Notes: generated by a model not told the origin, from the sequence alone. Positions 4,064 to 23,421 are shown, numbered from the stretch's first letter. The stretch is 32,000 nt of DNA from Aliivibrio fischeri ES114 (GCF_000011805.1 NC_006841.2); one strand, 5' to 3'. Translations and numbers: made by a program.

Positions 4064-5677
4064 TTAGTCTTTTGCTGATTCAGTTAAGATTTGATAACGA
4101 TCTTGGCCCCAAGCAACTGGTTTTGGTTTATCTTTAATCCAGTTATAGAAAGCATTTTTCATCTCTTTCACTTTTTCAGGGTATTTTTTAGCTAAATCAA
4201 TCGACTCTGAAGGATCTTCTTTATCATTAAATAGCTTCACCTTATTTGAACCATCATCATAGAAATACAACGCCCAATCTTGATCACGAATCGCCCATGA
4301 GCCTTTAGACAGTTTTTCTAAATTTGGGTTATTCGGAATTGTATTGGTTTCATAGGTGATCCACTTCCAATAGCCATACCAGAACGCATCATTTTCTTCA
4401 CTGTAATGTTTCGCTCCAGGGCCTGCCCAGTATAAGTATTGGTGAGGTGATGTTTCTGTCTTCCCTTCTAAAACAGGCATAATGTTTTTACCATCCACCT
4501 GCATATCTTCTGGAATATCAATGCCTGCCGCAGCTAGAGCCGTTGGTAAAATATCCAATGCTGAGATCAGTGAATCGCTTTCACCACCAGCTGGAATGTG
4601 TTTTGGCCAGTAAGCGACAAATGGGACTCTGACACCACCGTTATACATTTGCCCTTTAAAGCCTTTATCCATTCCATTCATTGGCATTGGCGACTCATGA
4701 ACGGCTCCGTTATCAGATAAGAAGAATATGATGGTATTATCTAACTCTCCTTTCTTCTCTAAGTTATCCATAATAATACCAAGACTTTCATCTGCCGCAT
4801 TAATCGCCGCAAAATACTTGTCCGCCTCAACATTACCAGTATTAAATCTATCCATGTATTTTGCAGGAGATGCTTCTTCTAATGGAATATGAGGTACGCT
4901 AAATGCGAGGTTAACAAAGAAAGGTTTGTCACCACTTTCATCAATAAACTTCAGTGCTTGCTCGGTTAAATTATGCGTTAAATAACCCGGAGCAGAGATA
5001 TTTTTACCATTTTGCCAAATAGCTGGTGAATCCCATAAAGCGGCACCCGATGCGTAAAAACTGTATGAATAATCGAAACCACGCTCTTCTGGGCCATAGC
5101 CTTTTGGCGTTACTGTGATTTGGTTGTCATGATAATCGCGTGTACGCTTATCTTCATCAACCAAGTTTTTGCCTTTAATCTTGGCATTATGCCATTTACC
5201 GATTGTCGCTGTTCGATAACCATTTTCTTGGAAAAGTGCTGGCAATAATTTGATATCTAAAGGGATACCCAATTTTGCATCATCATTACTGTATGTACCA
5301 AAACTAGTTGGATGACGACCAGTAAAAATCCCTGCACGAGATGGGCCACAAACAGGGTGTGCCACAAATGCGTTAGTCATTTTAACGCCATTTGCGGCCA
5401 GTTTTTCAACATTTGGCATTGCCCGCTGAGCAGCGTCGATCATTTTATCTAAATCCCCCTGATAACGAACAGGGACAGAACGCTTAGCTAATTCAGACTT
5501 ATCCAAACTGTCTAGGGCAAAATTAAGTTGGCCCGTGCCTAAATCATCCATAACGACAAGTAATACGTTAGGTTGATCAGGATTGTGATTTGCAGCATAA
5601 GAAAGCGAAGGTGCAGCTACACAGGCAGCAGCAACTAGGCTTGCAATTACTGTCTTCTTCGATGAGGACAGGTTCAT
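4064..5677 (-). CDS. Exported (Sec signal) Cys-type sulfatase, S1 formylglycine-dependent family
   Basis: 537 aa. Signal peptide MNLSSSKKTVIASLVAAACVAAPSLSYA. PNVLLVVMDDLG metal-site segment. CxPxR formylglycine motif in HPVCGPSRAGIFTGRHP. GKWH and FFLSDNG segments typical of sulfatases. Confidence 0.9.
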   Translation of the reverse strand: MNLSSSKKTVIASLVAAACVAAPSLSYAANHNPDQPNVLLVVMDDLGTGQLNFALDSLDKSELAKRSVPVRYQGDLDKMIDAAQRAMPNVEKLAANGVKMTNAFVAHPVCGPSRAGIFTGRHPTSFGTYSNDDAKLGIPLDIKLLPALFQENGYRTATIGKWHNAKIKGKNLVDEDKRTRDYHDNQITVTPKGYGPEERGFDYSYSFYASGAALWDSPAIWQNGKNISAPGYLTHNLTEQALKFIDESGDKPFFVNLAFSVPHIPLEEASPAKYMDRFNTGNVEADKYFAAINAADESLGIIMDNLEKKGELDNTIIFFLSDNGAVHESPMPMNGMDKGFKGQMYNGGVRVPFVAYWPKHIPAGGESDSLISALDILPTALAAAGIDIPEDMQVDGKNIMPVLEGKTETSPHQYLYWAGPGAKHYSEENDAFWYGYWKWITYETNTIPNNPNLEKLSKGSWAIRDQDWALYFYDDGSNKVKLFNDKEDPSESIDLAKKYPEKVKEMKNAFYNWIKDKPKPVAWGQDRYQILTESAKD

Positions 5678-5717
5678 TGTTTACTCCTTGTTATTATTTT
5701 CAATTTATCGTGTTGCG

Positions 5718-6950
5718 TTAAATACGTAGGGTATTTTTAATCAGAGGTACGGCATCAATCGCGGTTCCTCCTTGTTGAATGGCTTGAGACATTAAATGCA
5801 TGGCAGATGCGGTTTGCGTAAAAATTTGCTGATAGGATTTACAAAGATAATTGTGCTTATGCTTTTCTCCATCAAGAGAAACGAGGCGATGTTTAGGGCA
5901 ACCACCATAACACAAACGATACACATCACATGCTTCACATTGGCCAGTTAACTTAAGGGATTTCGCTGAGCCAAAACGCTTCTGTTGTTTACTTGTAGCC
6001 ATTTGAGCTAATGACGTTTGTTCAATATTTCCTAATTTATTTGCCGGATAAACATAATGATCACAAGAATAAACATCACCATTTGCTTCTATTACCATGG
6101 CTTGCCCACACTCTTTTGATTGCACACAAGTAGAAGCTGGGTATCCCATCCAACTGCCTAAAATACTATCGAAAATACGAACAAAAACCTGGCCGACATC
6201 CTCTTTAACCCACTGATTAAACACAGCTATCATAAACTGCCCATAACCATCAGCAGGCACACTAAAATGGGTTAACTCTGCATCTTGTGAAGGAGAATAA
6301 TGTCCATTTGTTGATTGCTGACAATTCGCATTAACTTCAACAATTGGAATAAATTGCATATGAGTTGAACCTAACTCTTTTAATGCTTGATACGTTTCTT
6401 TACCACGTTGCCAATTTTGATCGTTGATCACCGTTAATGTATTAAACTCAACCTTGTACTCTTTCAATAATTCAAGTGATCGCTTAACTCTTTCAAACGT
6501 TGGTTTACCATTAACTGAAATACGATATTTATCATGAACCTCAGCAATGCCATCAATAGAAACACCAAGCAGAAAATTGTGTTGAGAAAAGAACTCTGCC
6601 CATTGACGATTAATGGCTACGGCATTAGTTTGAAAGCTATTGGTGACAATTTTACCTTCAGCATACTGCTGCTGATATTTCACTGCATTTCGATAAAAAT
6701 CTAAGCCAGCTAATGTTGGCTCCCCACCCTGCCAAGAGAAATCAACCTCTTGCCCTTGATGTGAGCGGATATAATCACGCACATAACACTTTAACATTCC
6801 ATTAGACATATTTTCACTTGGCTCAGATGTCGTCTTATTCACCACACCATCTTTTTCTAAGTAGAAACAGTAATCGCATTTTAAGTTGCAATGAAAACTG
6901 GTTGATTTTGCCATCATATGAAAAGCAGCATATTGTGCATTAGAAGCCAT
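5718..6950 (-). CDS. Anaerobic sulfatase-maturating enzyme (radical SAM/SPASM, AslB/ChuR-like)
   Basis: Track ORF 5718..6995. I prefer ATG 6950 (MASNAQYAAFHMMAK...), which has AGGA 6 nt upstream. CNLKCDYC radical-SAM CX3CX2C motif. C-terminal Cys clusters CVQSKECGQ...YSCDHY and CEACDVYRLCYGGCPKHR (SPASM). It lies 40 nt upstream of the sulfatase and is probably co-transcribed with it. Confidence 0.9.
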   Translation of the reverse strand: MASNAQYAAFHMMAKSTSFHCNLKCDYCFYLEKDGVVNKTTSEPSENMSNGMLKCYVRDYIRSHQGQEVDFSWQGGEPTLAGLDFYRNAVKYQQQYAEGKIVTNSFQTNAVAINRQWAEFFSQHNFLLGVSIDGIAEVHDKYRISVNGKPTFERVKRSLELLKEYKVEFNTLTVINDQNWQRGKETYQALKELGSTHMQFIPIVEVNANCQQSTNGHYSPSQDAELTHFSVPADGYGQFMIAVFNQWVKEDVGQVFVRIFDSILGSWMGYPASTCVQSKECGQAMVIEANGDVYSCDHYVYPANKLGNIEQTSLAQMATSKQQKRFGSAKSLKLTGQCEACDVYRLCYGGCPKHRLVSLDGEKHKHNYLCKSYQQIFTQTASAMHLMSQAIQQGGTAIDAVPLIKNTLRI

Positions 6951-6960
6951 AACGATTCCT

Positions 6961-7125
6961 ATCGAAAGTATTTGAAAGCAAGAGCAACAATACACGAAAG
7001 TAAATTAAGATTTAAAGATCGATATCACAAACAAACGAAAGAAAACAAAAATAAATAATTTGCGATATTGATCGATAAATAACCAATTCATTTTCGTTAA
7101 TCTACGAACGTAAAATATCGAAAGT
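6961..7125. promoter_or_regulatory. Divergent promoter region (maturase/sulfatase vs lyase) with repeated CGAAAG (=CTTTCG) motifs; candidate AgaR/DeoR-type operators
   Basis: CGAAAG occurs at 6963..6968, 6995..7000, 7036..7041 and 7119..7124, and TGAAAG at 6973..6978. The 9-mer ATCGAAAGT (rc ACTTTCGAT) occurs at 6961..6969 and 7117..7125. CAAACGAAAG (rc CTTTCGTTTG) is at 7032..7041. The same 9-mer and 10-mer recur in the agaR/sulfatase intergenic region. Confidence 0.4.
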
Positions 7126-7170
7126 GATTTTGCATCTTACAAATTCATTAATATTTAAAGGGAATCAATT

Positions 7171-9579
7171 ATGTATATGATCAAAAAACATCGTTTGAAT
7201 ACGATTGCTCTCTCTATGTTATTTCTATTTACGGGAAACGCTTACGCTGCAAAAAATACCCAAACACCACAATATTTACCGAGTGATTTTGAGCAAGTAA
7301 GAGAAAACTGGGCTGAAAATTATTTAGGTGATCCTGCTATAACGTTTGATCAAACGCTAAAAAATATGGTGACCAGCACCAATAGTTCGGCGCAAAAACA
7401 TTGGGATAGCATGACACCACAACCAAACGCTTCTGGAATTTGGGATGATTTACCATTAATAGATAAAGATACAACACTCGGTCCTAATATACGTAACTCC
7501 TATCAACGTTTATTTACCATGGCAAAGGCTTATCGTTTACGTGATGGCAATTTAGAAAATAATCAATTAATGCTAAATGACATCATGACGGCCATGAACT
7601 ACATAAATCAAAATTTCTACTTTGTTAATCAATTAGAATATGGAAATTGGTGGCAATGGGAGTTGGCAATACCAAAAGATATTCATAACATTTTAGTGCT
7701 ACTTTTTGATGATATTAAAGACAATTACCAAACCATTATAACCAATCACCTTAATGCTACTCGCTATTTCACACCAGACCCAACTCACTTAGGAGTCAGC
7801 CCTGGTGCTGCTGAATCAACGAATCCTAACTATCGAGAATCCACTGGCGGCAATCGAACCGATAATGCTCAAGTTGTACTTATTCGTGGCATGCTTGAAA
7901 ACAATAGTGAAGAAATCAGCCAAGCTATTGCTGCTCTTCCTGCGGTTATTGAATATGTGAGCGAAGGGGATGGCTATTACACTGATGGGTCATTCTTACA
8001 ACACTCTGATATTGCCTATAACGGTACATATGGCAATGTATTACTTGGTGGTTTAGGCATTCAAATGAACGCAGTCGCAGGCTCACCGTGGAGTATGGAT
8101 AACCAAACCATTAGCAACGTTTACAATATCATTAACCAATCGTATGAACCTTTGCTGTATAAAGGAGCAATGATGGATATGGTCAATGGTCGCTCGATTT
8201 CTCGAAGCGCTGAACAAAATCATGATGTTGGATTAAATATTGTCAACTCTATGTTGTTCTATACCAATGGACCAGATAGCGATAAAAATAAACAACTGTC
8301 ATCACTGATCAAAACCCAAATAACCGATGATACTTATCAAAACTTCTTTGATAAAATTTACTATGTATCCACGTATCAGGCTGCTCAGCATATTGTTAAT
8401 GATCCAACGGTTTCGCTTAAAGATCCTCTGATTGGTAACTTTAGCTACCCTTCAATGGACCGTATTGTGCACCGTCGAACTGATTGGGCTTTCGCTTTAG
8501 CGATGCACTCATATCGTATTGGTAACTACGAATGCATGAATGGTGAAAACCTTAAAGGCTGGTTTACTGGCGATGGCATGATCTATTTATATAACGATCA
8601 GCTTGATCATTACACAGGATATTGGCCAACCGTTAATGCATCTCGTATGCCGGGAACAACCGTAGATAGCCAAATCATGGCTGATTGTAGTGGTGAACGT
8701 GTAGGTGGAAATGTAAATACCAATATGCAATGGGTTGGTAGTACTTCATTAAACAACTATGGAATTGCTGGTATGCAATTTTATAATTGGAGTGACACAC
8801 TAAGTGCCTATAAATCTTGGTTTATGTTTGATAATGAAGTTGTCATGCTTGGTTCTAACATTAAAGACCAAAGCAATGCAAATAACATAACTACGATTGA
8901 GAACAGAAAGCGTTTAGCAGAGACGAAATTATTTATTGATGGTACAGAGCAAGCTGCATTGCCATATCAAGGTGCACCAGCTACTTTTAGCATTCGTAAT
9001 AAAACACTCGCTAACAGTGATTTAAGCTACGTTATGTTAACACCTAAAACCATATCAATAAGCCAAAATGATGTAGATGGTAATTGGAGTGATATTGGCA
9101 ATAGCAAAGGTGATGTTTCAGACTCGTACTTACAAGCGACATTAACTCAAGTAGATCAGGCAGATTATCAATATGCCCTACTTCCTAATCAAAACAATGA
9201 TACTGTACAAAACTACGCTCAACATCCTGATGTTACTGTTCTACGTCAAGATGAACAAGCACACGCGGTACAAGAAAACACCTTAAATATCATTGCTGCA
9301 AATAATTGGAAAAATAATCCCGTTAATATCACAGACACTATTACACTGAACTCAATGATGGGCTTTATGATTAAAGAAGAAAGTTCAAATACGTTCACTG
9401 TTGCAGTTAGTGAACCAATTCAGACTATTGATAGCGTAAACTTTACCTTTGATAAACAAGGTATTGTAATTAAAGAAGATATTGAAAATCGTGTGGTACT
9501 AAATGGCACAACACTTACCATTAATACCTCTGGTTTACAGGGACAATCTTATTCTTTCCAAGTAACAATTCAAGACTAA
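7171..9579 (+). CDS. Exported polysaccharide lyase family 8 (chondroitin AC / hyaluronate lyase-like)
   Basis: 802 aa. GGGA lies 7 nt before ATG 7171. Sec signal ...LFLFTGNAYA|AKN. PL8-type catalytic region GGNRTDNAQVVLIRG ... DGSFLQHSDIAYNGTYGNVLLGG (Asn/His/Tyr pattern as in streptococcal hyaluronate lyase and chondroitin AC lyases, recalled from memory). The C-terminal region is beta-rich. Confidence 0.8.
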   Translation: MYMIKKHRLNTIALSMLFLFTGNAYAAKNTQTPQYLPSDFEQVRENWAENYLGDPAITFDQTLKNMVTSTNSSAQKHWDSMTPQPNASGIWDDLPLIDKDTTLGPNIRNSYQRLFTMAKAYRLRDGNLENNQLMLNDIMTAMNYINQNFYFVNQLEYGNWWQWELAIPKDIHNILVLLFDDIKDNYQTIITNHLNATRYFTPDPTHLGVSPGAAESTNPNYRESTGGNRTDNAQVVLIRGMLENNSEEISQAIAALPAVIEYVSEGDGYYTDGSFLQHSDIAYNGTYGNVLLGGLGIQMNAVAGSPWSMDNQTISNVYNIINQSYEPLLYKGAMMDMVNGRSISRSAEQNHDVGLNIVNSMLFYTNGPDSDKNKQLSSLIKTQITDDTYQNFFDKIYYVSTYQAAQHIVNDPTVSLKDPLIGNFSYPSMDRIVHRRTDWAFALAMHSYRIGNYECMNGENLKGWFTGDGMIYLYNDQLDHYTGYWPTVNASRMPGTTVDSQIMADCSGERVGGNVNTNMQWVGSTSLNNYGIAGMQFYNWSDTLSAYKSWFMFDNEVVMLGSNIKDQSNANNITTIENRKRLAETKLFIDGTEQAALPYQGAPATFSIRNKTLANSDLSYVMLTPKTISISQNDVDGNWSDIGNSKGDVSDSYLQATLTQVDQADYQYALLPNQNNDTVQNYAQHPDVTVLRQDEQAHAVQENTLNIIAANNWKNNPVNITDTITLNSMMGFMIKEESSNTFTVAVSEPIQTIDSVNFTFDKQGIVIKEDIENRVVLNGTTLTINTSGLQGQSYSFQVTIQD

Positions 9580-9701: not shown

Positions 9702-9733
9702 ATGATTTTACTCAATGAAATAGGATGTTTTTT

Positions 9734-10649: not shown

Positions 10650-11699
10650 TTATTCAGCTAATTTTGCAACCTCTGTTGCTGCTAGCATGAAAGCACCCGC
10701 ACCATAATCGATGTTATGCTCAAACTTAACGTCACGTGGATTAAAGGCTGGTAGCTGTACCCAACCAATCATGCCGTTATCGTGAATACATTCAAGTAAG
10801 GCTACCCACGCTTTTTCGATAACTGGTAAGTAAGTTTCTTTATCCAACTCACCAGTATTAACGCCCCATGCTAAACCATAACAAAACAGAGCAGTTGCAC
10901 TGCTTTCAGGTGCAGGGAAGTTTTCAGGAGCTAATAGGCTAGTACGCCAAAAACCATCGTCTTGCTGGTATTTAATTACTTCAGCCGCTAAATGTGTAAA
11001 TAGAGTAATGTACTCAGAACGATTCATGTAGTCTTCAGGCATATTCGCTAGAATACGAGGAACTGATGCTAGTACCCATCCAATACCACGACTCCAAAAT
11101 ACCTTATTGCCGTTTTCTTCTCGTAACTCTTCACCATTTCCATTTGGAATATAGCGATAGTCACGATAATACAAACCCGTTTCTGTATCTAATAAATGCT
11201 CTGCTGAATCCCAAAAAGCAGTATTCATGTAATCCAAGTATTTTGAATCACCTGTTTGCTTTGATAATGCAACAAAAGCTGGCGGCGCCATAAATAATGA
11301 ATCACACCACCACCAATCTTTGCGACCTAGCTCTGGTTCATTAACCATAATATCAAGCGCTTTAATGGTTGGCTCTAAGGCTTCGGGTTGGTTAAATTCA
11401 GAATAAATATCAAGGTAGGCTTGGCAACAAACATGGTCATCAGCAAAACGAGCATTAGGTCCAGTTCTGAATCCAGTATGTAGAGCGTAATTTTTTACAC
11501 CATCCAGATATTCAGTGTCTCCCGTCGCTTTCCATGCCGCGGCAACACACGACCAAAAAACACCACGTTCCCAATCAGTATCTTTAATAAAACGGGTCTT
11601 ACCACTGCGTCTTACTACACTTCTTGTTTGGTTTTCAGCTTGGTAGCGATAAACTCGCTTCATCGCTTGTAATACGTCTTGCTTTGTTCCTAATGTCAT
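10650..11699 (-). CDS. Cytoplasmic unsaturated uronyl hydrolase (Pfam Glyco_hydro_88 superfamily; GH88/GH105)
   Basis: 349 aa with no signal peptide (MTLGTKQDVLQAMKRVY...). AAGGA lies 7 nt upstream. Segments DTDWERGVFWS, WWWCDSLFMAPPAF, FWSRGIGWVLAS and DYGAGAFMLAATE resemble remembered YteR (GH105) and UGL (GH88) sequences. Confidence 0.75.
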   Translation of the reverse strand: MTLGTKQDVLQAMKRVYRYQAENQTRSVVRRSGKTRFIKDTDWERGVFWSCVAAAWKATGDTEYLDGVKNYALHTGFRTGPNARFADDHVCCQAYLDIYSEFNQPEALEPTIKALDIMVNEPELGRKDWWWCDSLFMAPPAFVALSKQTGDSKYLDYMNTAFWDSAEHLLDTETGLYYRDYRYIPNGNGEELREENGNKVFWSRGIGWVLASVPRILANMPEDYMNRSEYITLFTHLAAEVIKYQQDDGFWRTSLLAPENFPAPESSATALFCYGLAWGVNTGELDKETYLPVIEKAWVALLECIHDNGMIGWVQLPAFNPRDVKFEHNIDYGAGAFMLAATEVAKLAE

Positions 11700-15151: not shown

Positions 15152-16069
15152 TTACAAAATACCTAGGTAGTGACCAATAACACCACCGGCTAACGTTGAG
15201 AAAATCAACACAGGAGGTTTCGCCCAAAAACCAGTTCCTTTCACCATTTTTAACATAAAGAACACCAATGCTAGTGGCAAAATATTAGGCATTATCTTGT
15301 CAAACAGTGCGGTTTGAAGTTCAACGACTTTCCCTCCGAGTTCGAGAGATAAGGTGGTTTGAACTTTAATAAAGGATGCCGACAATGCACCAATAACAAA
15401 GATACCCATGATATTTGCCGCTTTGGCTAATTTCTCAGTCGCATCGCTCATGTTAACCATGGCTGCTGTACCGGCTTTATATCCCATAAACATCAAACCG
15501 AAATACACAAAGAAGTGCACAATTTGATACAAAATGAAGAAAACAAACGGTCCTGCAATAGAGCCTTGCATTGCAATTGATGCACCTAACGCCAACGTTA
15601 ACGGCATAAGAGTCATATGGTCAATTGCATCACCAATACCACCAGTAGGTCCCATACCCGCTACTTTCATTACATTTACTGTAGACGGTTTTTCCTTGTT
15701 TTCTTCCATTGCAATGGCAGTACCTAGCAAGAAAGTAAACAGTTTAGGACTCGCATTAAAGAACTGAAGATGGTTCTTAGTTGCCGTTGCTAAATCACGT
15801 TTGTTATTACCATGAATCTTCTTTAGTGCAGGAACAATTGAGTAAGCAAAGCCACCACCTTGCATACGTTCAAAGTTGAAGTTCCCTTCCATGAAAAGGC
15901 CACGAATTGCACATTTCCAAAGATCTTTTTTCGAGATAACTTTACGAACTTCCTTGTCTTGATATTCGTCGATACCATCAACCAAGCTCTTAGGATTCGC
16001 CACTTGAGTACCTTGAAACTCATCAATGCCATCAATTAGAGCGTTCGGATTTTCTGTTTTAGATACCAT
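15152..16069 (-). CDS. agaE: PTS mannose-family EIID component with unusual N-terminal extension
   Basis: Track ORF 15152..16117. I prefer ATG 16069 (MVSKTENPNA...), which overlaps the IIC stop by 11 nt. Core NFNFERMQGGGFAYS is the EIID signature. The ~45 aa before ISKKDLW contain a duplicated motif. Confidence 0.8.
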   Translation of the reverse strand: MVSKTENPNALIDGIDEFQGTQVANPKSLVDGIDEYQDKEVRKVISKKDLWKCAIRGLFMEGNFNFERMQGGGFAYSIVPALKKIHGNNKRDLATATKNHLQFFNASPKLFTFLLGTAIAMEENKEKPSTVNVMKVAGMGPTGGIGDAIDHMTLMPLTLALGASIAMQGSIAGPFVFFILYQIVHFFVYFGLMFMGYKAGTAAMVNMSDATEKLAKAANIMGIFVIGALSASFIKVQTTLSLELGGKVVELQTALFDKIMPNILPLALVFFMLKMVKGTGFWAKPPVLIFSTLAGGVIGHYLGIL

Positions 16070-16829
16070 CTTCAAAGTCCTCAAATTCTTGATTTGAATT
16101 TTTGTTTCCATTTCCACTAAAGAAGTAATATAGAGCGGCTGCTGATGCCCCTAAAATTGCCACGGCCATGATCGGAAGCTGTAAATACGTTGTCATTACA
16201 AAACCGATAAAGAACACACCCGCCACTTCTTTTGACCACATAATTTTCAATAGCATTGCAAAACCAATTGCAGGAACCATTTTCGCCCCGATACCTAATC
16301 CTTCTAATAGAGTTTTCGGAGCATTAGCATCAATCCAAGCTGCGCCATGTTCACCAAAATAAACGGTCAAGAAGGCAATCACAGCGTAGAGCATTGAACG
16401 CATTGTAATCGTGGAAAGTAAGAGAAAATCAATGCCATTTGTATTCGCTTCTTCAGCGTATTTATCTGCTTTACCCATGGTAAATGAGGTCATAGCAAAG
16501 AAACCGATAACAAGCATTTGCATTAATACTGCGATAGGCATACCAACACCCATAGCAACTTCTGGTGATTGTCCTGTCATTACAGCGAATGCTACAGCAG
16601 CAATCGTACCCATAGTTACATCTGGCGGCTGTGCCCCAGCGTTAGGCACTAGACCTAACCATGCGAGTTCCAGCGTTGCACCAGCGATTAAGCCAATTTG
16701 CATATCGCCCATAATTAGACCAACAACAGGTCCTGTGATAAGTGGTCTATGGATATTCAATGCGACATCGTATTTATCGATACCACAGAAGAATGCCCAC
16801 ACTGCCACTAAACTTGCTTCAAATAACAT
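16059..16829 (-). CDS. agaW: PTS mannose-family EIIC component
   Basis: 256 aa, polytopic membrane protein. Its position between IIB and IID and its size match AgaW/ManY-type EIIC. Confidence 0.85.
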   Translation of the reverse strand: MLFEASLVAVWAFFCGIDKYDVALNIHRPLITGPVVGLIMGDMQIGLIAGATLELAWLGLVPNAGAQPPDVTMGTIAAVAFAVMTGQSPEVAMGVGMPIAVLMQMLVIGFFAMTSFTMGKADKYAEEANTNGIDFLLLSTITMRSMLYAVIAFLTVYFGEHGAAWIDANAPKTLLEGLGIGAKMVPAIGFAMLLKIMWSKEVAGVFFIGFVMTTYLQLPIMAVAILGASAAALYYFFSGNGNKNSNQEFEDFEDGI

Positions 16830-16839: not shown

Positions 16840-17340
16840 CTAGGCTGCTGTTTTTGCTAGTTCAAGAACGTTAATTGGTGTTTGATCTGGTGTATTTTGA
16901 ACCGTGCATGTCACGCCCTTTTCCACCATTTTTTCAAACGCTAAAATATCGGTTTTATCTACAGAAACGGTTTTCGCAATTTGACGTTTACCATCGTGGT
17001 AATGCATATTGCCTACATTACAATGTGTAATTGGAACGCCGCCTTCTACCAAACGAGCAACGTCAGTAGGGTTATTACATAAGATAAAAATCTTCTGTTT
17101 TGGCGATGCTTTATGAATCACATCAATGGTTTTTTGAATTGAAAAGAAACGCACGGCATATTCACCGCCTGCAGAGGCTTTCATGCCTGCTTGCATAAAC
17201 GCAGCATTAGGGCCCTCAGCAGCTTCATCATTAGCAACAAGAATCAAATTAGCTTCGGAATGTTTTCCCCAAGTAATTCGAATTTGTCCATGCAGTAAAC
17301 GCTCATCAATACGCGTCCAAACGATTTGTGGTCCAGTCAT
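16840..17340 (-). CDS. agaV: PTS mannose-family EIIB component
   Basis: 166 aa. IVWTRIDERLLHGQ carries the conserved phospho-His of sorbose/mannose-family EIIB. Confidence 0.85.
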   Translation of the reverse strand: MTGPQIVWTRIDERLLHGQIRITWGKHSEANLILVANDEAAEGPNAAFMQAGMKASAGGEYAVRFFSIQKTIDVIHKASPKQKIFILCNNPTDVARLVEGGVPITHCNVGNMHYHDGKRQIAKTVSVDKTDILAFEKMVEKGVTCTVQNTPDQTPINVLELAKTAA

Positions 17341-17354: not shown

Positions 17355-18524
17355 TTAATCTTTATTATTAAAAGTATGAATATTGACGCCTTGAACAACA
17401 CGATTAACTTCACCTGTAGGGCACGGGTTGTCAGGAGTATTTCCTAGTGCAACAGAACGATGGAATGCGTAAGCTTGAGCAAACAACATGTAAGGAAACA
17501 GCAACTCAACATCTGACGCGTTTTCCATCATAGGTACACGAATTACGTTTTCATCTGCAACTACGTCATTAAGTTGAGCGGTAATTGCGATAACTTTTTT
17601 AGCGATATTGTCACGACGAAGTTCAGCTAAAAGATCCAAATCGTATTGACGGGTGTATGGGTCATTTGAAATGAAAACAACAATCATGGTTTCATTATTA
17701 ACAATGGACTTTGGACCATGACGAAAGCCAAGTGGGGAATCAAAACAAGCAACAACTTTACCCGCAGTCAGTTCTAATAATTTCAATGCAGACTCTTGTG
17801 CTAATCCCTTCAAACCACCGCTACCTAAATAAATAACCCTACTAAAATCATGGGAAGCAGTATCTCTAACATTGGAATTAATTTCTTTGATCAACTCCTC
17901 AGAACACTTACAAATACTTTCGATTTCTTTCGAATTGTTATTTTTGTGCGTTAAAACAGAAAAACAAGCTAAAGTCATTGACGAAAAACTAGAGGTCATT
18001 GCGAATGACTTATCATTAGTTTCTTCTGGCATCAGTAATACAAGAGCGTTATCTTGATGCTGAAATTGACTAAATAACGCCCCTTCACCATTGCAAGTTA
18101 AAATAAGATGATGACAATTAGTTAAACATTGATTAGCTAAATCAACTGCTGCAACACTTTCTGGACTATTACCAGAGCGAGCAAAAGAGACCAATAACGT
18201 AGGAATATCTTCTGCAAAATATTCTGCCGGATTAGAGACAAGATCAGTCGTTGAAATCGCTTCCACACGTTGGTGTAATACTTTTGATAATGCCGGAGCA
18301 ACCGCTTGTCCTGCGAATGCTGAAGTACCCGCTCCCGTTAATATAATTCGACGCTCAGAATTCGTATTCCACTTATCTATAAACGACGAGATTTCCGCTA
18401 TATTGTCTTGAATGATTAAGTCAGTTCGGCGCCAACTTTCCGGTTGTTGAGTAATTTCTTTCGCAGTCCAAAAACCAGAAAGCGTTTCTAATTCTGATTC
18501 TGAGTAACCAAGGTAGTGATTCAT
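17355..18524 (-). CDS. agaS: SIS-domain galactosamine-6-phosphate deaminase/isomerase (tagatose-6-phosphate forming)
   Basis: 389 aa. N-terminus ...[12 protein letters not shown] and tandem SIS domains (GAGTSAF..., [18 protein letters not shown]). The start overlaps the kbaZ stop (ATGA). Confidence 0.85.
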
Positions 18525-19822
18525 AATGCAACGCCTTCTTCTTTATTTTGTTTACAAGCCTTCGCATAACTACGAAGTGTTTGACGGATCTTATCGAGAA
18601 CAAGCTCTTTGGGTTCTAAGCTCAATTGCCCTTCACGAACCGAGCGAAATTGGGATGATAAATGCTGACTAAGTAATGGAAGCGGAATGCCATTACGAGA
18701 TAAATTAGTAAACAAAGTATTCTGCGCCTGATTAATTTTTTCATCTGGCCAGTAATAACGAATGCGATCACTAAAGCTGTAGCTACGAGAGAAACGTTGC
18801 TGGGCTTCATTACCTTGATAATATGGTTGCCAATATTCTGGAGAGTCACACATTTCTTTTTCGATATGTTCACGCAAATCTGAACAATGTGCTTTTGGTA
18901 TCAATTGTTCTTCGATATCACATAGGTTGTATAACGCTTCACGCAAGGCAAAGGTCAGCGCGGGGCCCACTTTCAAAATAGCAAAATGGTCTCTTACAAG
19001 AGCTTGATACGCTTTATCTGTTTGATAATCTGTAGAGTGCGCTTCAAAAACCATGTGTTCAAAGTCATCAACTACTTTACTTAACTCCAAAGCTTCTTCT
19101 GAACGATAATCAATAACACCAGTATGATCAAATTCAACACCTGGCTGTACAACTAAACCAACCACACGTTGCCAACAATCAGCTACGCCTGCTCGTTCAA
19201 ATGCAAATTGATGGGATTGAATGGTTTTTCTTGCGGCCTCTGGTGAAGTAACTTGAAGTGTATCTAACTCCTCAGCAGCACCACCCGGTACCGGAACTTC
19301 TGTACCAATAACATAAACAAGATCGCTATGACCAAAAGAAGAAACTGCCGTATCTTCTGCTATTTTAGCCAATCTAGCAGCACGTTCAGCGACGATTTCA
19401 TCAGATAGAGGGGTTGGATCATCGGCACAAGACATACTGCAGTCTAAATGGATCTTCTTAAATCCAGCAGCAACATAAGCGGCGATAAGATCATCAGCAT
19501 TCACCATTGCTTCTGCAGCTGTTAGTTTCTGCCAACGATTAGGACCAAGGTGATCACCACCAAGAATGAGTTTTTCGGTTGGGAAATTAAGTGATTTTGC
19601 TAGCTGTAGTACAAAGTCTCGAAAATCAGCAGGCTTCATTCCTGTATAGCCACCAAATTGATCAACTTGATTAGAAGTTGCCTCAATAAGTAGCAAGGAG
19701 TCATCACTTAAAGCTTGAGAAAGCGCCGCTTCGATAACTAACGGATGAGCAGAACAAACTGAATAAATTCCGTTTTGCTCACCCGCTTTGTGACGCTGTA
19801 CAAGATGTTGAAAGGTGTTCAT
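18521..19822 (-). CDS. kbaZ: D-tagatose-1,6-bisphosphate aldolase accessory subunit (AgaZ/KbaZ/GatZ family)
   Basis: 433 aa. N-terminus [34 protein letters not shown] closely parallels the remembered E. coli KbaZ N-terminus (..[24 protein letters not shown]..). Confidence 0.85.
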
Positions 19823-19825: not shown

Positions 19826-19864
19826 CTAACTCCATACTGCATCCGAATGCAGCTATGGAGTTAG
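19826..19864 (-). promoter_or_regulatory. Very stable 17-bp hairpin filling the agaR-kbaZ gap and sequestering the kbaZ Shine-Dalgarno
   Basis: Minus-strand RNA reads CUAACUCCAUA-G-CUGCAU-UCGG-AUGCAG-UAUGGAGUUAG, then UAA AUG. The outer stem is 11 bp (19826..19836 / 19854..19864), the inner stem 6 bp, with a 1-nt bulge and a 4-nt loop. The 3' arm contains the GGAG that sits 7 nt before the kbaZ ATG. No U-run follows. Confidence 0.6.
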
Positions 19865-19869: not shown

Positions 19870-20646
19870 TTACTTTTCTTTTTCGACAATGATTACTTCA
19901 ACTTTCATTTCACGGAGACCTTGTAGGTACTCTTCAGGAATATCAGAATCAGTAACTAAGATATCAATATTTCCGAATTCTCTGATCATATGACAGCTGC
20001 GTTTACCAAATTTGGTTGAATCTGCAACTGCGATCACTTGCTCTGAAATATCACACATAAGTCGGTTAAGGCTTGCTTCTTGTTCATTATGTGTAGTGAT
20101 ACCCGATCTCAAATCAAAACCGTCAACACCCAAAAACACTTTATCAAAGCGATAATTTTTTAGGCTAGCTTCAGCTTGAGAGCCAGAAAAAGAGAGAGCC
20201 TTCTTACGAAGAACTCCACCCGACATCAATACTTCTATACCAGAAGCTGATGCTAATTCCATAGCTACATCCAGACCATTAGTCATGACTACCGCTTGCT
20301 CTAACGACTTTAAGTTAGATGCAATTTCTCGCGTAGTCGTACCAGAATCCAGAATAACGGTGTCACCATTTTCAATCAGTTGTGCCGCTGCGTAACCAAT
20401 AGAAGACTTTGTTCCAATATTTTGATGACGTTTCTCATGAACCGTAAGTTCAGCAATCACACCAGTATTTGGAATAGCCGCTCCATGAGAACGAACAACA
20501 TACCCATTCTTTTCTAAAAAGCTCAGGTCACTGCGAATAGTGACACTAGAGACATCAAATCGTGCAGCAAGGTCCTCTACACGTGCTTTACCATCTTGAT
20601 TAACCACGTTTACGATTTCCATGCGCCTTTCGACAGCACTCATCAT
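19870..20646 (-). CDS. agaR: DeoR-family transcriptional repressor (AgaR-like)
   Basis: 258 aa. N-terminal wHTH ([36 protein letters not shown]) and a C-terminal DeoR sugar-phosphate sensor domain. AAGGAG lies upstream. It is the first gene of the aga-type operon. Confidence 0.9.
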   Translation of the reverse strand: [258 protein letters not shown]

Positions 20647-20678
20647 TTTTTACTTGTCTCCTTAAATCAACGAAATCT

Positions 20679-21002
20679 CTTTCGTTTGATTTCGAATTAA
20701 CCTTACACCTAAAAATTATTCCTACAATATGGAAGTATGAAACTTTTGATCTCTTTCACATTCTTTCGATAATCTTCGCTTTGTTTTTATCTTACGTTAT
20801 TTTTCGTATTTCTTCATATATTACTCTTTGAAAGCAAAAATACCAAATAAATCCCATAGTTAATGCGACTTGCCTTTCATTTATTTTTAGATCTGTAAAA
20901 AAGGAAAATAGTGGACGGTTAAAAATTCATCAGCACTCTCAGATTTTGTGATCACTAACACAGCAAGTTAACTTTCGATCACTTACGATCCGCAAGCTTT
21001 CG
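20679..21002. promoter_or_regulatory. Divergent control region (agaR operon vs Tat-sulfatase/porin) with repeated CTTTCG motifs; candidate AgaR operators
   Basis: CTTTCG occurs at 20679..20684, 20763..20768, 20972..20977 and 20997..21002, and CTTTCA at 20753..20758 and 20874..20879. TTTCGTTTGATTTC (20680..20693) matches 13 of 14 positions of the remembered E. coli AgaR core TTTCRTTTYRTTTY. ACTTTCGAT (20971..20979) and CTTTCGTTTG (20679..20688) are shared with the 6961..7125 region. Confidence 0.45.
20947..20962. promoter_or_regulatory. Candidate cAMP-CRP site
   Basis: TGTGA-TCACTA-ACACA compared with the consensus TGTGA-N6-TCACA (9 of 10 half-site positions). It lies about 95 nt upstream of the sulfatase ATG. 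A TACAAT -10-like hexamer is at 21030..21035. Confidence 0.35.
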
Positions 21003-21056
21003 AAGAAAAATAAACAATAACGAAAACCCTACAATTCAATTTAGTAAGGAGACTCA

Positions 21057-22613
21057 ATGTCTATTACACGTAGAGACATATTGAAAGGTGCAGCCGCGAC
21101 AGGAGCTATTGCTGCAACATCAGTACTGTCTGGTTGCCAAAAAACAGGGGCAACTAACTCAATGGCCGACTTGGCACATAAGATTAAACGTCCAAATTTG
21201 TTAATCATATTTCCTGATGAAATGAGAGCACAAGCACTTGGCTTTATGGGGGAAGACCCATCTCTAACGCCAAACTTAAATCGATTTGCTAAAGATAGTG
21301 CCGTTCTTAAACAAGCAGTATCTAATTTTCCGTTATGTACTCCATTTCGTGGAATGTTGATGACAGGACAATACCCTTACCGCAATGGGATCCAAGGAAA
21401 TAGCCATACAGCCACACCAGGAATGTTTGGCGGTAAAGATTTCGGTATTGAATTAAAAAAGAATCAATCTACATGGTCTGATATTTTAAGCCAACAAGGC
21501 TACAGCATGGGTTATATCGGCAAATGGCATTTAGATGCACCAGAAGCCCCTTTTGTTCCAAGTTATAACAATCCAATGGAAGGTCGCTACTGGAATGACT
21601 GGACAACACCAGATCGTCGTCATGGTTTTGATTTTTGGTATTCATACGGCACCTATGATAAACATTTAACACCAATGTATTGGACGAACGATACACCTCG
21701 AGATCAGCCTCTTCATATTAATCAATGGAGTCCTGAACATGAGGCCGATATAGCCATTAAATATTTACGCAATGAAAACGGTAACTATCGCAATAATGAT
21801 AAGCCATTTACGCTTGTTGTTTCGATGAACCCTCCTCATTCTCCTTATGATCAAGTACCTCAAAAATATCTTGATAGATTCAAAGAAAGTTCAAGAACAT
21901 TAAACTCTCGTCCAAATGTTCAATGGGATAAAGAATACCTAGAAGGATATGGCCCTGAATATTTCAAAGAATACATGGCGATGGTCAATGGCGTTGATGA
22001 ACAATTTGGTCGTATTGTCGATGAACTAGATGCCTTAAATCTTGCGAAAGATACCTTAGTTGTTTTCTTCTCCGATCACGGCTGCTGTATGGGTTCAAAT
22101 GGCAATCCGACCAAAAATGTACATTATGAAGAAGCGATGCGAATTCCAATGATGTTCCGCTGGCCGGGAAAAATTGCACCCAAATCCGATGATCTTCTTT
22201 TTTCAGCACCTGATATCTACCCAACCCTATTTGGATTAATGGGTATGGACGATTTAATTCCAGATACCGTAGAAGGTACTGATTTCTCAAAAACAGTTAA
22301 AAGTGAAAGTGGCGATATTAAACCCACCTCTCAATTTTATACCTTTATGCCTTATGGCGGACAATCTTACGGTCGTCGTGGAATTCGAAATAAACAATAC
22401 ACACTGATGATCGATAGAAAAATAGGTAAGCCATTAACTTATGTTCTTCATGATAATCAAGTAGATCCTTATCAAATGAAAAACATTGCTGAACAACAAC
22501 CCGAACTCATCTCTCAATTAATTCAGAACGAACTCATGCCTTGGCTTGAGCATACTGGTGACCCGTGGCGTCCAACAGAAGTACCTAAAAACACCGCCAA
22601 TGCGTACACCTAA
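21057..22613 (+). CDS. Tat-exported lipoprotein Cys-type sulfatase (S1 family)
   Basis: 518 aa. AAGGAG lies 6 nt upstream. MSITRRDILKGAAATGAIAATSVLSGC combines a twin-arginine motif with an LSGC lipobox. PNLLIIFPDEMR metal-site segment. CxPxR motif in LCTPFRGMLMTGQYP. GKWH and FFSDHG segments. Confidence 0.9.
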   Translation: MSITRRDILKGAAATGAIAATSVLSGCQKTGATNSMADLAHKIKRPNLLIIFPDEMRAQALGFMGEDPSLTPNLNRFAKDSAVLKQAVSNFPLCTPFRGMLMTGQYPYRNGIQGNSHTATPGMFGGKDFGIELKKNQSTWSDILSQQGYSMGYIGKWHLDAPEAPFVPSYNNPMEGRYWNDWTTPDRRHGFDFWYSYGTYDKHLTPMYWTNDTPRDQPLHINQWSPEHEADIAIKYLRNENGNYRNNDKPFTLVVSMNPPHSPYDQVPQKYLDRFKESSRTLNSRPNVQWDKEYLEGYGPEYFKEYMAMVNGVDEQFGRIVDELDALNLAKDTLVVFFSDHGCCMGSNGNPTKNVHYEEAMRIPMMFRWPGKIAPKSDDLLFSAPDIYPTLFGLMGMDDLIPDTVEGTDFSKTVKSESGDIKPTSQFYTFMPYGGQSYGRRGIRNKQYTLMIDRKIGKPLTYVLHDNQVDPYQMKNIAEQQPELISQLIQNELMPWLEHTGDPWRPTEVPKNTANAYT

Positions 22614-22692
22614 ATACACATCTAAAAAGTAACAATGAACACAAATTCAAGATTTAGCAGTGAAACACCCATAACAATAAATAGGGAATATT

Positions 22693-23421
22693 ATGAAACA
22701 ATCTTACAAAGTTATTATCGCTTCTGGTTTAGCAATATTTGCAGCACAAGCCCTAGCCAATGACTATAAAACAACAGTGGAATATCGCCATGAATATAAA
22801 GATGGCAATAATAAGCATGCAGACAGAGTGAAAATGTTCTTAGATACAGGGAAGAATATCGGCTTTGAATTGGATGCAAGATACAACAATAAAGATCAAG
22901 ACCAAATGTACGATGAAATGAGTATGAATGGTTCAGAACTTTCGATTTTCTACTACGATAAAATAGCAGAAAACACGACAGGGCTATTAGGTTCATCACT
23001 CGATTTTAACCCTGATGGTTTAGTGTATGTTCCTTATGTTCGTGTAAACCACTCTTTTGATAATGGATTTAGAGCACAAGCACGTTATAAATGGAAAATC
23101 TGGGATTATTCACAAACTAACGCAGCAGGTGAAAAATACACATCAAAAATCCAAGAGTTAGATACATGGCTTGGTTACAACACGGGAAAATGGGATTTCC
23201 AATACGAGTTTCAGATTTGGAATGAAACCGATGATGATGCAAAACCTCAATTTGATAATGAAAGCTACGACTATCTCCACAATTTCCGCATCATGTATAG
23301 TTTTGTAAACCCTGATGGTACGAAATGGCGCCCATTTGTTGAAGTAGGTAATGTACGCCAAGACAGCTACAGCGATAACCGTCAAACTCGTTACCGTGTT
23401 GGTATCAAATACACATGGTAA
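22693..23421 (+). CDS. KdgM/NanC-family small outer-membrane oligosaccharide porin
   Basis: 242 aa. Signal peptide MKQSYKVIIASGLAIFAAQALA|ND. Alternating amphipathic beta-strand pattern, rich in Tyr/Asp/Asn. C-terminal YRVGIKYTW aromatic terminus. Size matches 12-stranded KdgM-type porins. Confidence 0.7.
   Translation: MKQSYKVIIASGLAIFAAQALANDYKTTVEYRHEYKDGNNKHADRVKMFLDTGKNIGFELDARYNNKDQDQMYDEMSMNGSELSIFYYDKIAENTTGLLGSSLDFNPDGLVYVPYVRVNHSFDNGFRAQARYKWKIWDYSQTNAAGEKYTSKIQELDTWLGYNTGKWDFQYEFQIWNETDDDAKPQFDNESYDYLHNFRIMYSFVNPDGTKWRPFVEVGNVRQDSYSDNRQTRYRVGIKYTW

Follow-up and report, generated by a model that had tools for sequence, protein, structure and literature searches.

Several gene systems for the breakdown of glycosaminoglycans (GAGs) or of their constituent sugars have been described. 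The streptococcal/Firmicute GAG cluster, described by the Hashimoto laboratory (e.g., PMC6837340 and PMC5430744), encodes the PL8 lyase HysA, a mannose-family phosphotransferase system (PTS), the GH88 unsaturated glucuronyl hydrolase UGL, DhuI/DhuD or KduI/KduD, and KdgK/KdgA. Chondroitin polysaccharide utilization loci (PULs) of Bacteroides, such as B. caccae PUL25 (PL35, GH88, BcGDH, and GH109; PMC12269599) and those of B. thetaiotaomicron with BT_3349 and BT_3333, use SusC/SusD import together with a periplasmic hydrolase and dehydratase. For N-acetylgalactosamine (GalNAc), the aga/gam regulon of Escherichia coli comprises agaR, kbaZ-agaVWEF-agaA, and agaS-kbaY-agaBCD-agaI. In Vibrionaceae, the searchable literature holds only a bioinformatic description of a hyaluronan (HA) locus in V. 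alginolyticus LWW-9 (PUL-HA), for which passage of the outer membrane was ascribed to a TonB-dependent transporter unlinked to the locus (PMC8222515), and one sentence noting that PL8 genes of some Aliivibrio lie together with genes for uronates and amino sugars (PMC12327903). The subject here is a stretch of 32,000 nucleotides (the window) from chromosome II of Aliivibrio (Vibrio) fischeri ES114, an origin established by exact protein matches to VF_A0991, VF_A0994, an exported sulfatase, and a porin. With a probability of roughly three in four, it carries a catabolic regulon for chondroitin sulfate (CS) and HA, that is, a Gram-negative, PTS-based GAG utilization locus. A gene already known for other reasons, eroS, is probably the first gene of this coherent chondroitin-eating pathway, under the control of the repressor AgaR.

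EroS and the enzymes encoded around it

The lyase gene of the locus (7171..9579, + strand) encodes a secreted chondroitin AC/hyaluronate lyase with the three-domain PL8 architecture (Lyase_8_N, Lyase_8, and Lyase_8_C). The protein is EroS: it is identical in sequence to AAW88064.1 (VF_A0994), it contains the peptide TQITDDTYQNFFDK used for EroS quantification (AQUA), and its catalytic residues, His278 and Tyr287, lie at the published positions. A preliminary description of this DNA, made from the sequence alone, had listed a PL8 lyase and did not recognise it as an already famous, characterised enzyme. EroS is the secreted chondroitinase, or "aphrodisiac" enzyme, that causes the choanoflagellate Salpingoeca rosetta, on which it is effective at picomolar levels, to mate; it is secreted into the medium and cleaves CS and HA, not dermatan sulfate (DS) or heparan sulfate (10.1101/139022). 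The enzyme is present in the culture supernatant in rich and poor media alike, and its secretion is reported to be constitutive. EroS has been characterised alone, and the searchable literature gives it no metabolic context and yielded no entry for the locus tags next to it.

The published activity bears directly on the substrate. An enzyme inactive on CS and HA had been considered beforehand as a way in which a GAG locus might be disproved, and the work on EroS answers in favour of the GAG interpretation, DS excepted. Together with the close relationship of the sulfatases to characterised CS enzymes (below), it strongly supports the reading that the locus is directed at chondroitin and hyaluronan, and not at pectin. 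The further proposal that DS is also a substrate is not supported: EroS does not cleave it, and an ABC-type lyase is absent from the locus.

Open reading frames (ORFs) were taken from a six-frame listing, and families were assigned by Pfam and NCBIfam profile scans, with the NCBIfam equivalog cut-offs as thresholds; every gene named in the preliminary description was recovered where it had been placed. The PL8 lyase gene (7171-9579, +) is divergent from an operon (6950-4064, -) in which the gene for a sulfatase maturase is followed by that for a Sec-exported sulfatase. Read from 20646 down to 10650, the minus strand carries in succession agaR, kbaZ, agaS, the PTS genes for IIB, IIC, IID, and IIA, a NagA/AgaA-type deacetylase gene, kduI, kduD, and a PF07470 hydrolase gene. 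Divergent from agaR lie the genes for a lipoprotein sulfatase exported by twin-arginine translocation (Tat) and a KdgM-family porin (21057-23421). This clustering is not due to chance: the genes stay together in four Aliivibrio species, and the core recurs in Salmonella and Edwardsiella loci, where its genes are 57-87% identical in amino-acid sequence.

Both sulfatases (PF00884) are of the Cys type, with C110-GPSR in the Sec enzyme (4064..5677, -; VF_A0992 by accession numbering) and C94-TPFR in the Tat enzyme (21057..22613, +; VF_A1007, an exact match to AAW88077.1). The Tat enzyme, which has a TAT_signal match and an LSGC lipobox, is by homology a CS/DS GalNAc-4-O-sulfatase. Over 518 amino acids (aa), its full length, it is 79.8% identical (1009 bits) to PDB 6J66, endoVB4SF, the crystallised CS/DS 4-O-endosulfatase from Vibrio sp. 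FC509, and it is also related to BT_3349, the endo-4-O-sulfatase of B. thetaiotaomicron (6S21, E 7e-93). Thus, in its C-x-P-x-R motif and full-length homology, it resembles the group of S1 formylglycine sulfatases with 4-O activity made up of endoVB4SF, exoPB4SF, PB_3262, and BT_3349. The Sec enzyme, with a Sec-type leader of 28 residues, is likely a CS GalNAc-6-O-exosulfatase. A search of a large protein collection found it to be 68% identical, at 100% coverage, to P0105 of a Photobacterium sp. (535 residues), which is deposited as 'chondroitin sulfate N-acetyl-galactosamine 6-O-sulfatase' and is the PB_3285 of PMC8819143. PB_3285 is strictly exolytic and acts on CS oligosaccharides, where it takes off the 6-O-sulfate of the GalNAc at the reducing end; mutation has shown that Cys109, Pro111, and Arg113 are essential (PMC8819143), and C110, P112, and R114 of the Sec enzyme align with them. 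Among solved structures, the best matches to the Sec enzyme are carrageenan sulfatases of S1_19 (~190 bits), and a carrageenan-type enzyme was first suspected from these, a candidate that was dropped in view of the 68%-identical characterised CS 6-O-sulfatase. The possibility, raised in the preliminary description, that both sulfatases belong to groups with non-GAG substrates is not borne out, as their near relatives are characterised CS 4-O- and 6-O-sulfatases. The maturase (5718..6950, -) is an anaerobic sulfatase-maturing enzyme (anSME) of the radical S-adenosylmethionine (radical-SAM)/SPASM type. It scores 528 bits against TIGR03942 (cut-off 349), contains PF04055 (Radical_SAM) and PF13186 (SPASM), and has the CX3CX2C motif CNLKCDYC at residues 21-28.

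Directly downstream of the Sec sulfatase gene, just outside the interval covered by the preliminary description and missed by it, lies VF_A0991 (2476..3993, -). Its product of 505 residues, an exact match to AAW88061.1, belongs to DUF2264 (PF10022, 287 bits), a family formerly called GH154 and labelled "BcGHD" in precomputed Pfam annotations. A 2025 study found that BcGDH of B. caccae is not a hydrolase but a beta-D-glucuronate dehydratase, which turns saturated non-reducing-end glucuronate (GlcA) on chondroitin fragments into a 4,5-unsaturated uronate that GH88 can then remove (PMC12269599). Activity is lost when E74, R78, N176, N177, W178, F181, Y229, R285, Y289, or Y354 is changed to alanine; Y229, R285, and Y289 are the proposed catalytic residues, and members of the family vary in aglycone specificity (PMC12269599).

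VF_A0991 is a putative enzyme of the same activity. Among PDB sequences it matches 9O4U/9NWF (BcGDH; E ~1e-11, 18-20% identity) and also 8OI4. In a HMMER alignment, nine of the ten essential BcGDH residues are matched by E114, R118, N221, N222, W223, F226, Y272, R321, and Y325 of VF_A0991, and these nine, including the counterparts of Y229, R285, and Y289, are invariant across an alignment of 25 homologues. The AlphaFold (AF2) model (pLDDT 83, pTM 0.88) matches the (alpha/alpha)-toroid fold: Foldseek places 8OI4 (GH154), 9O4U, and 9NWF on top as the sole strong neighbours, at a TM-score of ~0.7 on the target. The maximal ORF has no signal peptide, indicating a cytoplasmic protein. Of each chain cut by a lyase, one disaccharide stays saturated, that of the original non-reducing end, which is closed to an unsaturated-uronyl hydrolase. 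As judged from the residue pattern and the model, VF_A0991 would convert such saturated GlcA-GalNAc ends into substrates for that hydrolase. The DUF2264 gene is co-located with genes for the uronyl hydrolase and the PTS in six genera, and the searchable literature contains nothing that links DUF2264 to chondroitin use in Proteobacteria.

The unsaturated uronyl hydrolase itself (10650..11699, -) matches PF07470 (Pfam 'Glyco_hydro_88', 264 bits), and its maximal ORF likewise lacks a signal peptide. The cytoplasmic uronyl hydrolase of the preliminary description is therefore present, but its 'GH88' label has to be revised. PF07470 spans both GH88 and GH105, and PGAP names for the homologues are 'GH88' or 'GH88/105'. 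When all PDB sequences were searched with phmmer, the canonical Bacillus GL1/streptococcal GH88 UGLs gave no match even at E<=10; the nearest match was 4CE7 (237 bits), and 5NOA (BACCELL_00875), 4Q88, YteR, and other GH105 entries were also found. 4CE7 is the unsaturated 3S-rhamnoglycuronyl hydrolase of Nonlabens ulvanivorans, whose substrates are ulvan fragments, and which we take to be a GH105 member in CAZy (Collen et al. 2014). The enzyme appears to lie nearest to GH105 structures and is not filed here as a canonical GH88. Homologues that are 66-75% identical adjoin the PTS in all related loci.

The remaining catabolic genes, all on the minus strand, fall into two sets. For the unsaturated uronate there are KduI, a 5-dehydro-4-deoxy-D-glucuronate isomerase (12550..13380; NF002091, 460 bits, cut-off 250), and KduD, a 2-dehydro-3-deoxy-D-gluconate (KDG) 5-dehydrogenase (11725..12480; NF006528, 442 bits, cut-off 430; TIGR01832, 428 bits). 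For GalNAc-6-phosphate (GalNAc-6-P) there are an AgaA/NagA-family N-acetylhexosamine-6-phosphate deacetylase (13482..14624; TIGR00221, 317 bits, cut-off 226), the galactosamine-6-phosphate deaminase/isomerase AgaS (17355..18524; TIGR02815, 582 bits, cut-off 529), and KbaZ, the non-catalytic subunit of tagatose-bisphosphate aldolase (18521..19822; NF012002, 807 bits, cut-off 707).

Transport, regulation, and the proposed pathway

The PTS is the sole conserved transporter of the locus. Three of its subunits, EIIA (AgaF-like; 14626..15063; NF040761, 161 bits, cut-off 130), EIIB (16840..17340; PF03830; NF008508, 184 bits, cut-off 180), and EIIC (16059..16829; PF03609; AgaW model, 336 bits, cut-off 300), exceed the NCBIfam cut-offs for AgaF, AgaV, and AgaW, respectively; EIID (15152..16069; PF03613, 266 bits) is below that for AgaE (245 vs 500 bits). 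All four genes are on the minus strand. Identity to E. coli AgaV/W/E/F is 50/41/41/40%, as compared with 48-61% to the PTS found beside PL8 and hydrolase genes (HA-type Vibrio loci and an E. coli island) and 63-87% to the PTS of CS-type loci (Salmonella, Edwardsiella, and a Vibrio plasmid). For EIIC the values are 84% to the Salmonella/Edwardsiella CS-locus protein and 41% to E. coli AgaW. The PTS and the hydrolase occur without any aga catabolic gene in a Salmonella locus (L081), the E. coli island (L084), and the HA-type Vibrio loci, and a streptococcal mannose-family PTS is reported to import the unsaturated hyaluronan disaccharide (PMC6837340). This identity pattern, the aga-free loci, and the streptococcal precedent together support, rather than demonstrate, import of the CS disaccharide by the PTS with phosphorylation of GalNAc at O6. 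Ahead of its conserved domain, EIID carries a tandem 13-residue repeat, NPNALIDGIDEFQ / NPKSLVDGIDEYQ, at its N-terminus (~15955-16051, -); the EIID proteins of the Salmonella and Edwardsiella loci (296 aa) are ~10 residues shorter.

At the outer membrane, the candidate is a KdgM-family 12-strand porin (VF_A1008; 22693..23421, +; PF06178, 128 bits), which is identical to AAW88078 and has an N-terminal leader ending in ALA. Its match to KdgM (PDB 4FQE) has an E value of 1e-13, and that to NanC is weaker. KdgM-family genes are also present in the CS loci of Salmonella (59% identity) and Edwardsiella (51%), and from this conserved linkage the porin is proposed to be the entry channel for anionic CS oligosaccharides. 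The searchable literature holds nothing that links KdgM porins to chondroitin use in Proteobacteria. No ORF of at least 100 aa in the window matches a TonB-dependent receptor or the SusD family, and the contrast previously drawn with the SusCD-type PULs of Bacteroidetes holds, as the design includes neither SusC/SusD nor a TonB-dependent receptor.

AgaR, a DeoR-family repressor (19870..20646, -; NF040755, 421 bits, cut-off 260), is the only regulator in the locus. Half-sites of AgaR type, CGAAAG or CTTTCG, are clustered in the two divergent control regions. There are four between anSME and eroS (6951..7170), including TTTCTTTCGTTTGTTTG at 7040, and four between agaR and the 4-O-sulfatase/porin operon (20647..21056), including TCTTTCGTTTGATTTC at 20678. 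The eight occurrences in these 630 bases compare with 0.45 expected (Poisson ~3e-8), making this the top-enriched hexamer there; the whole window has 23 against 12.3 expected. The anSME/eroS cluster is kept in four other Aliivibrio loci. The core CTTTCRTTT is found at most ~100 bp upstream of anSME in Aliivibrio, Photobacterium damselae, Salmonella (four copies), and Edwardsiella ictaluri, and upstream of DUF2264 in Endozoicomonas. In a sister strain, A. fischeri emors.2.1 (locus L003, with 97% nucleotide identity over this stretch), four of the CGAAAG/CTTTCG motifs lie upstream of kbaY. We take the core to resemble the operator of E. coli AgaR (Ray and Larson 2004). The full 16-mer E. coli consensus, at 2 mismatches, is found 8 times against 3.2 expected, which is barely above chance; the convincing operator evidence is the short-core enrichment and its position across genera. 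Promoter and terminator scans yielded nothing above shuffled expectation.

The locus thus combines an AgaR orthologue with clustered CTTTC-type predicted operators, the features of an AgaR regulon, and these motifs suggest a single such regulon, which would take in the catabolic genes together with those for the lyase, sulfatases, maturase, dehydratase, and porin. Induction by free GalNAc only had been named as an outcome that would speak against a GAG locus. Since AgaR is the sole regulator and AgaR-type operators precede the lyase and sulfatase operons, such induction is instead to be expected. A further group of three CGAAAG/CTTTCG motifs (17722-17932), also kept in other Aliivibrio loci, falls within the coding part of agaS, at a distance of ~400-600 bp upstream from the gene for PTS IIB, and could be an internal AgaR site or mere coding conservation. 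The minus-strand array also contains two perfect inverted repeats, one between agaA and kduI (13410-13456; 16-nt arms ATAGCTATCTAAATAA / TTATTTAGATAGCTAT) and one with 11-nt arms (19826-19864) that takes up most of the 47-bp agaR-kbaZ gap. Their role may be that of attenuators, of processing sites, or of operators where two modules join.

The proposed pathway begins with a step known from the literature, in which secreted EroS cuts CS-A/C and HA to unsaturated oligo- and disaccharides. The anionic fragments would then enter the periplasm through the KdgM-family porin. The radical-SAM maturase would activate both Cys-type sulfatases in the cytoplasm; once exported, the Tat lipoprotein would remove the 4-O-sulfate and the Sec enzyme the 6-O-sulfate at the reducing-end GalNAc, as suggested by 80% and 68% identity, respectively, to characterised enzymes. 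Next, by analogy with the streptococcal PTS for the hyaluronan disaccharide, the mannose-family PTS would import the desulfated disaccharide and phosphorylate GalNAc at C6. Because this step uses the GalNAc 6-OH, removal of the 6-sulfate would be mechanistically required beforehand, and a disaccharide-phosphorylating PTS would therefore need a reducing-end 6-O-exosulfatase in the periplasm. Import of the disaccharide by the PTS is favoured because both enzymes that act on disaccharides, the hydrolase and VF_A0991, appear to be cytoplasmic, so that their substrates must cross the inner membrane intact, and because no other transporter is conserved in the locus. In the cytoplasm, the DUF2264/GH154-type enzyme would first dehydrate a saturated non-reducing-end GlcA, making chain-end disaccharides hydrolysable too. 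Hydrolysis of the phospho-disaccharide would release GalNAc-6-P directly, which accounts for the absence of a GalNAc kinase from the locus. The uronate would be converted to KDG by KduI and KduD, GalNAc-6-P would be converted to tagatose-6-phosphate (tagatose-6-P) by AgaA and AgaS, and the final steps (KbaY with KbaZ, KdgK, and Eda) would be encoded outside the window. AgaR, presumably sensing an intracellular GalNAc-derived phosphate, would co-regulate the lyase, sulfatase/maturase/dehydratase, sulfatase/porin, and catabolic operons.

Competing explanations

Several observations weigh against this pathway. The searchable literature contains no growth, induction, or transport data on the locus. 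The reported constitutive secretion of EroS fits tight repression by AgaR loosely at best, a mild tension that basal expression could explain. The preliminary description had claimed a complete route between 4064 and 23421; no kbaY, kdgK (KDG kinase), or eda (aldolase for the KDG-6-phosphate, KDPG) was found among the ORFs and the Pfam and NCBIfam matches of the interval or of the rest of the window, so that the complete routes for GalNAc (AgaA, AgaS, tagatose-6-P kinase, and KbaY/KbaZ) and for the unsaturated uronate (KduI, KduD, KdgK, and KdgA) are not contained in it. The hydrolase is not a canonical GH88, and ulvan fragments are the substrates of its closest relative of solved structure. 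VF_A0991 is only ~18-20% identical to BcGDH and is ~100 residues longer, and the tenth essential residue of BcGDH, Y354, lies outside their HMMER alignment. The endo or exo role of the 4-O-sulfatase cannot be read from its sequence because very close homologues differ in this respect: members of the group are 83-86% identical to each other and yet differ in endo vs exo action (PMC6581707; PMC8819143). Lastly, three of the four PTS subunits pass the thresholds for a GalNAc-monosaccharide PTS, and specificity for the monosaccharide is possible.

This last point leads to the foremost alternative, in which the PTS is an ordinary transporter of GalNAc and the aga genes serve free GalNAc from mucin or CS. 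The disaccharides would then enter by a transporter whose gene lies outside the locus, or other glucuronides would be the substrates of the hydrolase and the DUF2264 protein, and the association of the genes would be looser. The AgaF, AgaV, and AgaW scores and the ulvan GH105 relationship of the hydrolase are in line with this explanation, and the case for disaccharide transport is so far indirect. Nevertheless, it is unlikely. No enzyme of the locus could free GalNAc outside the cytoplasm, as the sole uronyl hydrolase has no signal peptide; the PTS always adjoins the hydrolase, even where the aga catabolic genes are all absent; its identity to E. coli AgaVWEF is 40-50%; and the related streptococcal PTS takes up an unsaturated HA disaccharide (PMC6837340).

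Two other explanations concern the purpose of the enzymes. EroS and the sulfatases could be mainly factors for interaction with host or prey (tissue spreading, matrix remodelling, sulfate scavenging, or signalling to eukaryotes) that happen to lie beside a GalNAc operon, as the constitutive secretion of EroS and its picomolar action on S. rosetta might suggest; likewise, a chondroitinase/arylsulfatase island of V. vulnificus, noted since 2007, has been discussed as a virulence trait. However, the genes for the hydrolase, KduI/KduD, DUF2264, and AgaA/AgaS, which are meaningful only if the lyase product is catabolised inside the cell, are interleaved with those for the lyase and the sulfatases and have AgaR-type motifs in common with them. 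Since this interleaving is kept in distant genera and on a plasmid, such a division of roles is considered quite improbable. Least credible of all is a different marine sulfated uronic-acid polymer as the target, ulvan-like or fucosylated chondroitin-like, with chondroitin cleavage a side activity of EroS. The 237-bit match of the hydrolase to an ulvan-specific GH105 and the carrageenan S1_19 enzymes among the solved relatives of the 6-O-sulfatase would fit it, but the Pfam and NCBIfam scans of the locus detect neither an ulvan lyase nor genes for the catabolism of rhamnose, fucose, or galactose, no carrageenan sulfatase comes near the 68% identity that the 6-O-sulfatase shares with a characterised CS enzyme, and GalNAc-6-P catabolism fits chondroitin specifically. 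A CS/HA regulon thus remains the preferred reading.

Boundaries, distribution, and known systems

In the sister strain, the DNA immediately beyond the position of the window's left edge encodes a kbaY-type tagatose-bisphosphate aldolase (TIGR01858, 522 bits; L003 1334-2188) and a KdgK-like kinase; eda was not seen there. The left end of the window itself (1-2264, -) encodes the C-terminal 754 aa of an 882-aa molybdopterin S/N-oxide reductase of the TorA/BisC family, and this gene, running off the edge, is the cause of a blank in the ORF list (605-2475) that might otherwise have been taken for a non-coding stretch or a pseudogene. The gene next after DUF2264 is kbaY in P. damselae, in E. ictaluri, and on a V. 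navarrensis plasmid, in some cases together with kdgK-eda. Because DUF2264 and kbaY-kdgK are adjacent in Photobacterium, Edwardsiella, and the Vibrio plasmid, the reductase gene of Aliivibrio looks like an insertion into a once-contiguous locus. Another gene, for an orphan FTR1/EfeU-like iron permease (9725-10564, +), lies between eroS and the hydrolase gene with hairpins on either side and has no EfeO/EfeB partner. It is present in ES114, A. sifiae, Aliivibrio sp. EL58, and A. finisterrensis and absent from the otherwise collinear L003 and from all other genera. On account of its iron-permease family and of these absences it was ruled out as the inner-membrane importer, and it is treated as a passenger.

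Directly after the porin gene is one for a GH20 chitobiase-type beta-N-acetylhexosaminidase (23541-26276, -) with CHB_HEX, GH20b, GH20, and CHB_HEX_C domains and a lipoprotein-like leader. Membership of this gene in the locus, for trimming of odd-numbered oligosaccharides as opposed to chitin use, was considered; it could not be tied to the locus from the Aliivibrio loci compared, which end before it. Further on are a tRNA-Asn/Thr/Ser cluster (27327-27644, -) and an unrelated, compositionally distinct block of low GC content (25-33%; 27803-31780), with genes for a sigma-70-family factor and for three proteins of response-regulator-GGDEF, Hpt, and GGDEF-EAL type.

Other A. fischeri strains have the arrangement in full, as do A. 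sifiae, A. finisterrensis, and Aliivibrio sp. EL58. The module of anSME, 6-O-sulfatase, and DUF2264 is accompanied by PL8 and ABC-type lyases in P. damselae; by the PTS, hydrolase, 4-O-sulfatase, and KdgM in Salmonella enterica; and by the whole aga-PTS-hydrolase block and KdgM in E. ictaluri. It is co-conserved also in Endozoicomonas. Plasmid pVN20-VB00237 of V. navarrensis (L083; NZ_CP065219.1 12713-46979), a conjugative 180-kb MOBF/MPF_F plasmid of a human isolate, carries a chondroitin locus that is complete, with four chondroitinase-family lyases, three sulfatases, anSME, DUF2264, kbaY, a kinase, eda, and DJ-1, together with the hydrolase, kduID, nagA, PTS, and agaS genes. This plasmid is direct evidence of a horizontally mobile system. 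The IS3-flanked island of E. coli APEC O2-211 (L084; NZ_CP006834.2 4287948-4312459) encodes a DeoR regulator, a mannose-family PTS, GH88/105, DUF2264, a hypothetical protein, a PL8 lyase, and an autotransporter, and has no sulfatases; its DUF2264 segment is found in 158 of 5426 complete E. coli genomes (~3%), many of them avian/poultry. Aliivibrio sp. EL58 has both a CS-type (L002) and an HA-type (L009) locus on the same scaffold of one genome; therefore, the two types are separate systems and not variants that replace each other. Long-form DUF2264 homologues are also present in Proteus, Providencia, Yersinia, Aeromonas, Moritella, and V. vulnificus.

As the preliminary description had supposed, the two literature entries mentioned at the outset leave the integrated pathway uncharacterised in Vibrionaceae. 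What was already known is EroS alone and homologous sulfatases from other strains; within the searchable literature, an integrated pathway of uptake and breakdown around EroS is undescribed. Gene by gene, the annotation is ordinary and largely predictable, and the value lies in an integrated, testable model and in a metabolic home for EroS. What sets the locus apart is its combination of a KdgM-type porin, two periplasmic CS sulfatases and their maturase, a GH105-like hydrolase, a cytoplasmic long-form DUF2264 protein as the putative dehydratase, and AgaR-governed GalNAc-6-P catabolism. EroS is otherwise known only as a secreted cue for sex in the closest relatives of animals, and a genetically tractable model now raises the questions of whether V. 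fischeri feeds on the chondroitin of squid tissue or of protists, whether eroS is regulated by its own breakdown product, and whether a PTS imports a GAG disaccharide across a Gram-negative inner membrane. The KdgM-type porin is pointed to as the missing outer-membrane step in Proteobacterial GAG utilization. In addition, a large DUF2264 subfamily, which in many pathogens (Edwardsiella, P. damselae, V. vulnificus, Proteus, Yersinia, and avian E. coli) bears no annotation beyond "domain of unknown function", gains a concrete candidate function in the cytoplasm.

Sulfatases and maturase are an optional addition to a core of PTS, uronyl hydrolase, and DUF2264, which recurs in Photobacterium, Salmonella, Edwardsiella, some E. 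coli, and the Vibrio plasmid. A wider proposal, which we put forward only tentatively and which may well fail, is that a widespread, undescribed class of gammaproteobacterial GAG loci exists. Its core would be a disaccharide-phosphorylating PTS followed by a cytoplasmic GH105-like hydrolase and long-form DUF2264 acting on the phospho-disaccharide; sulfatases with their maturase, the KdgM-type porin, and the aga genes would be plug-in modules, and the whole would be wired to AgaR. EroS-induced mating of choanoflagellates would then be a by-product of a foraging regulon spread by plasmids and by islands flanked by insertion sequences (IS) among animal-associated bacteria (Photobacterium, Edwardsiella, Salmonella, Proteus, Yersinia, and avian E. 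coli).

The A. fischeri locus shares features with each of the known systems. Like the pectin system of Dickeya/Erwinia, it couples a porin of the KdgM family, as a channel for anionic oligosaccharides, with KduI/KduD as the enzymes for a 4,5-unsaturated uronate; unlike that system, it has no pectate/oligogalacturonate lyase, TogMNAB/TogT, or KdgR, and the polymer would be an animal or protist GAG. As in the chondroitin PULs of Bacteroides, S1 sulfatases for desulfation (the 4-O-sulfatase being homologous to BT_3349) are combined with a lyase and with a uronyl hydrolase paired with a GH154-family dehydratase. However, the A. fischeri hydrolase and DUF2264 protein are predicted to be cytoplasmic, behind a PTS, and would meet a 6-phosphorylated disaccharide. 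With the E. coli aga system it has in common AgaR (48% identity), KbaZ (63%), AgaS (49%), AgaA (41%), a four-subunit mannose-family PTS (40-50%), and CTTTC-type operator repeats. The gene order differs, with agaR co-directional with kbaZ and with kbaY displaced, and the A. fischeri regulon adds the lyase, sulfatases, maturase, porin, uronyl hydrolase, and kduID.

The logic of the streptococcal cluster, an extracellular PL8 lyase, a PTS beside a cytoplasmic uronyl hydrolase, and an isomerase/reductase pair leading to KDG, is also that of the A. fischeri locus. To this, A. fischeri adds the Gram-negative envelope with a KdgM-family porin and periplasmic steps, two CS sulfatases, the radical-SAM maturase, and a putative dehydratase of the DUF2264/GH154 type; its hydrolase is GH105-like, and aga catabolism with AgaR replaces the streptococcal regulator. 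Within Vibrionaceae, PUL-HA of V. alginolyticus LWW-9 (PMC8222515), an architecture also seen in loci L006 and L009-L012, resembles it in having PL8, a DeoR regulator, a mannose-family PTS (subunits 48-58% identical), a PF07470 hydrolase (66-70% identical), and KduD, and in the absence of SusCD. The PUL-HA type, in contrast, has two tandem PL8 genes and is without the sulfatases, maturase, DUF2264, aga genes, and KdgM porin that characterise the locus around eroS.

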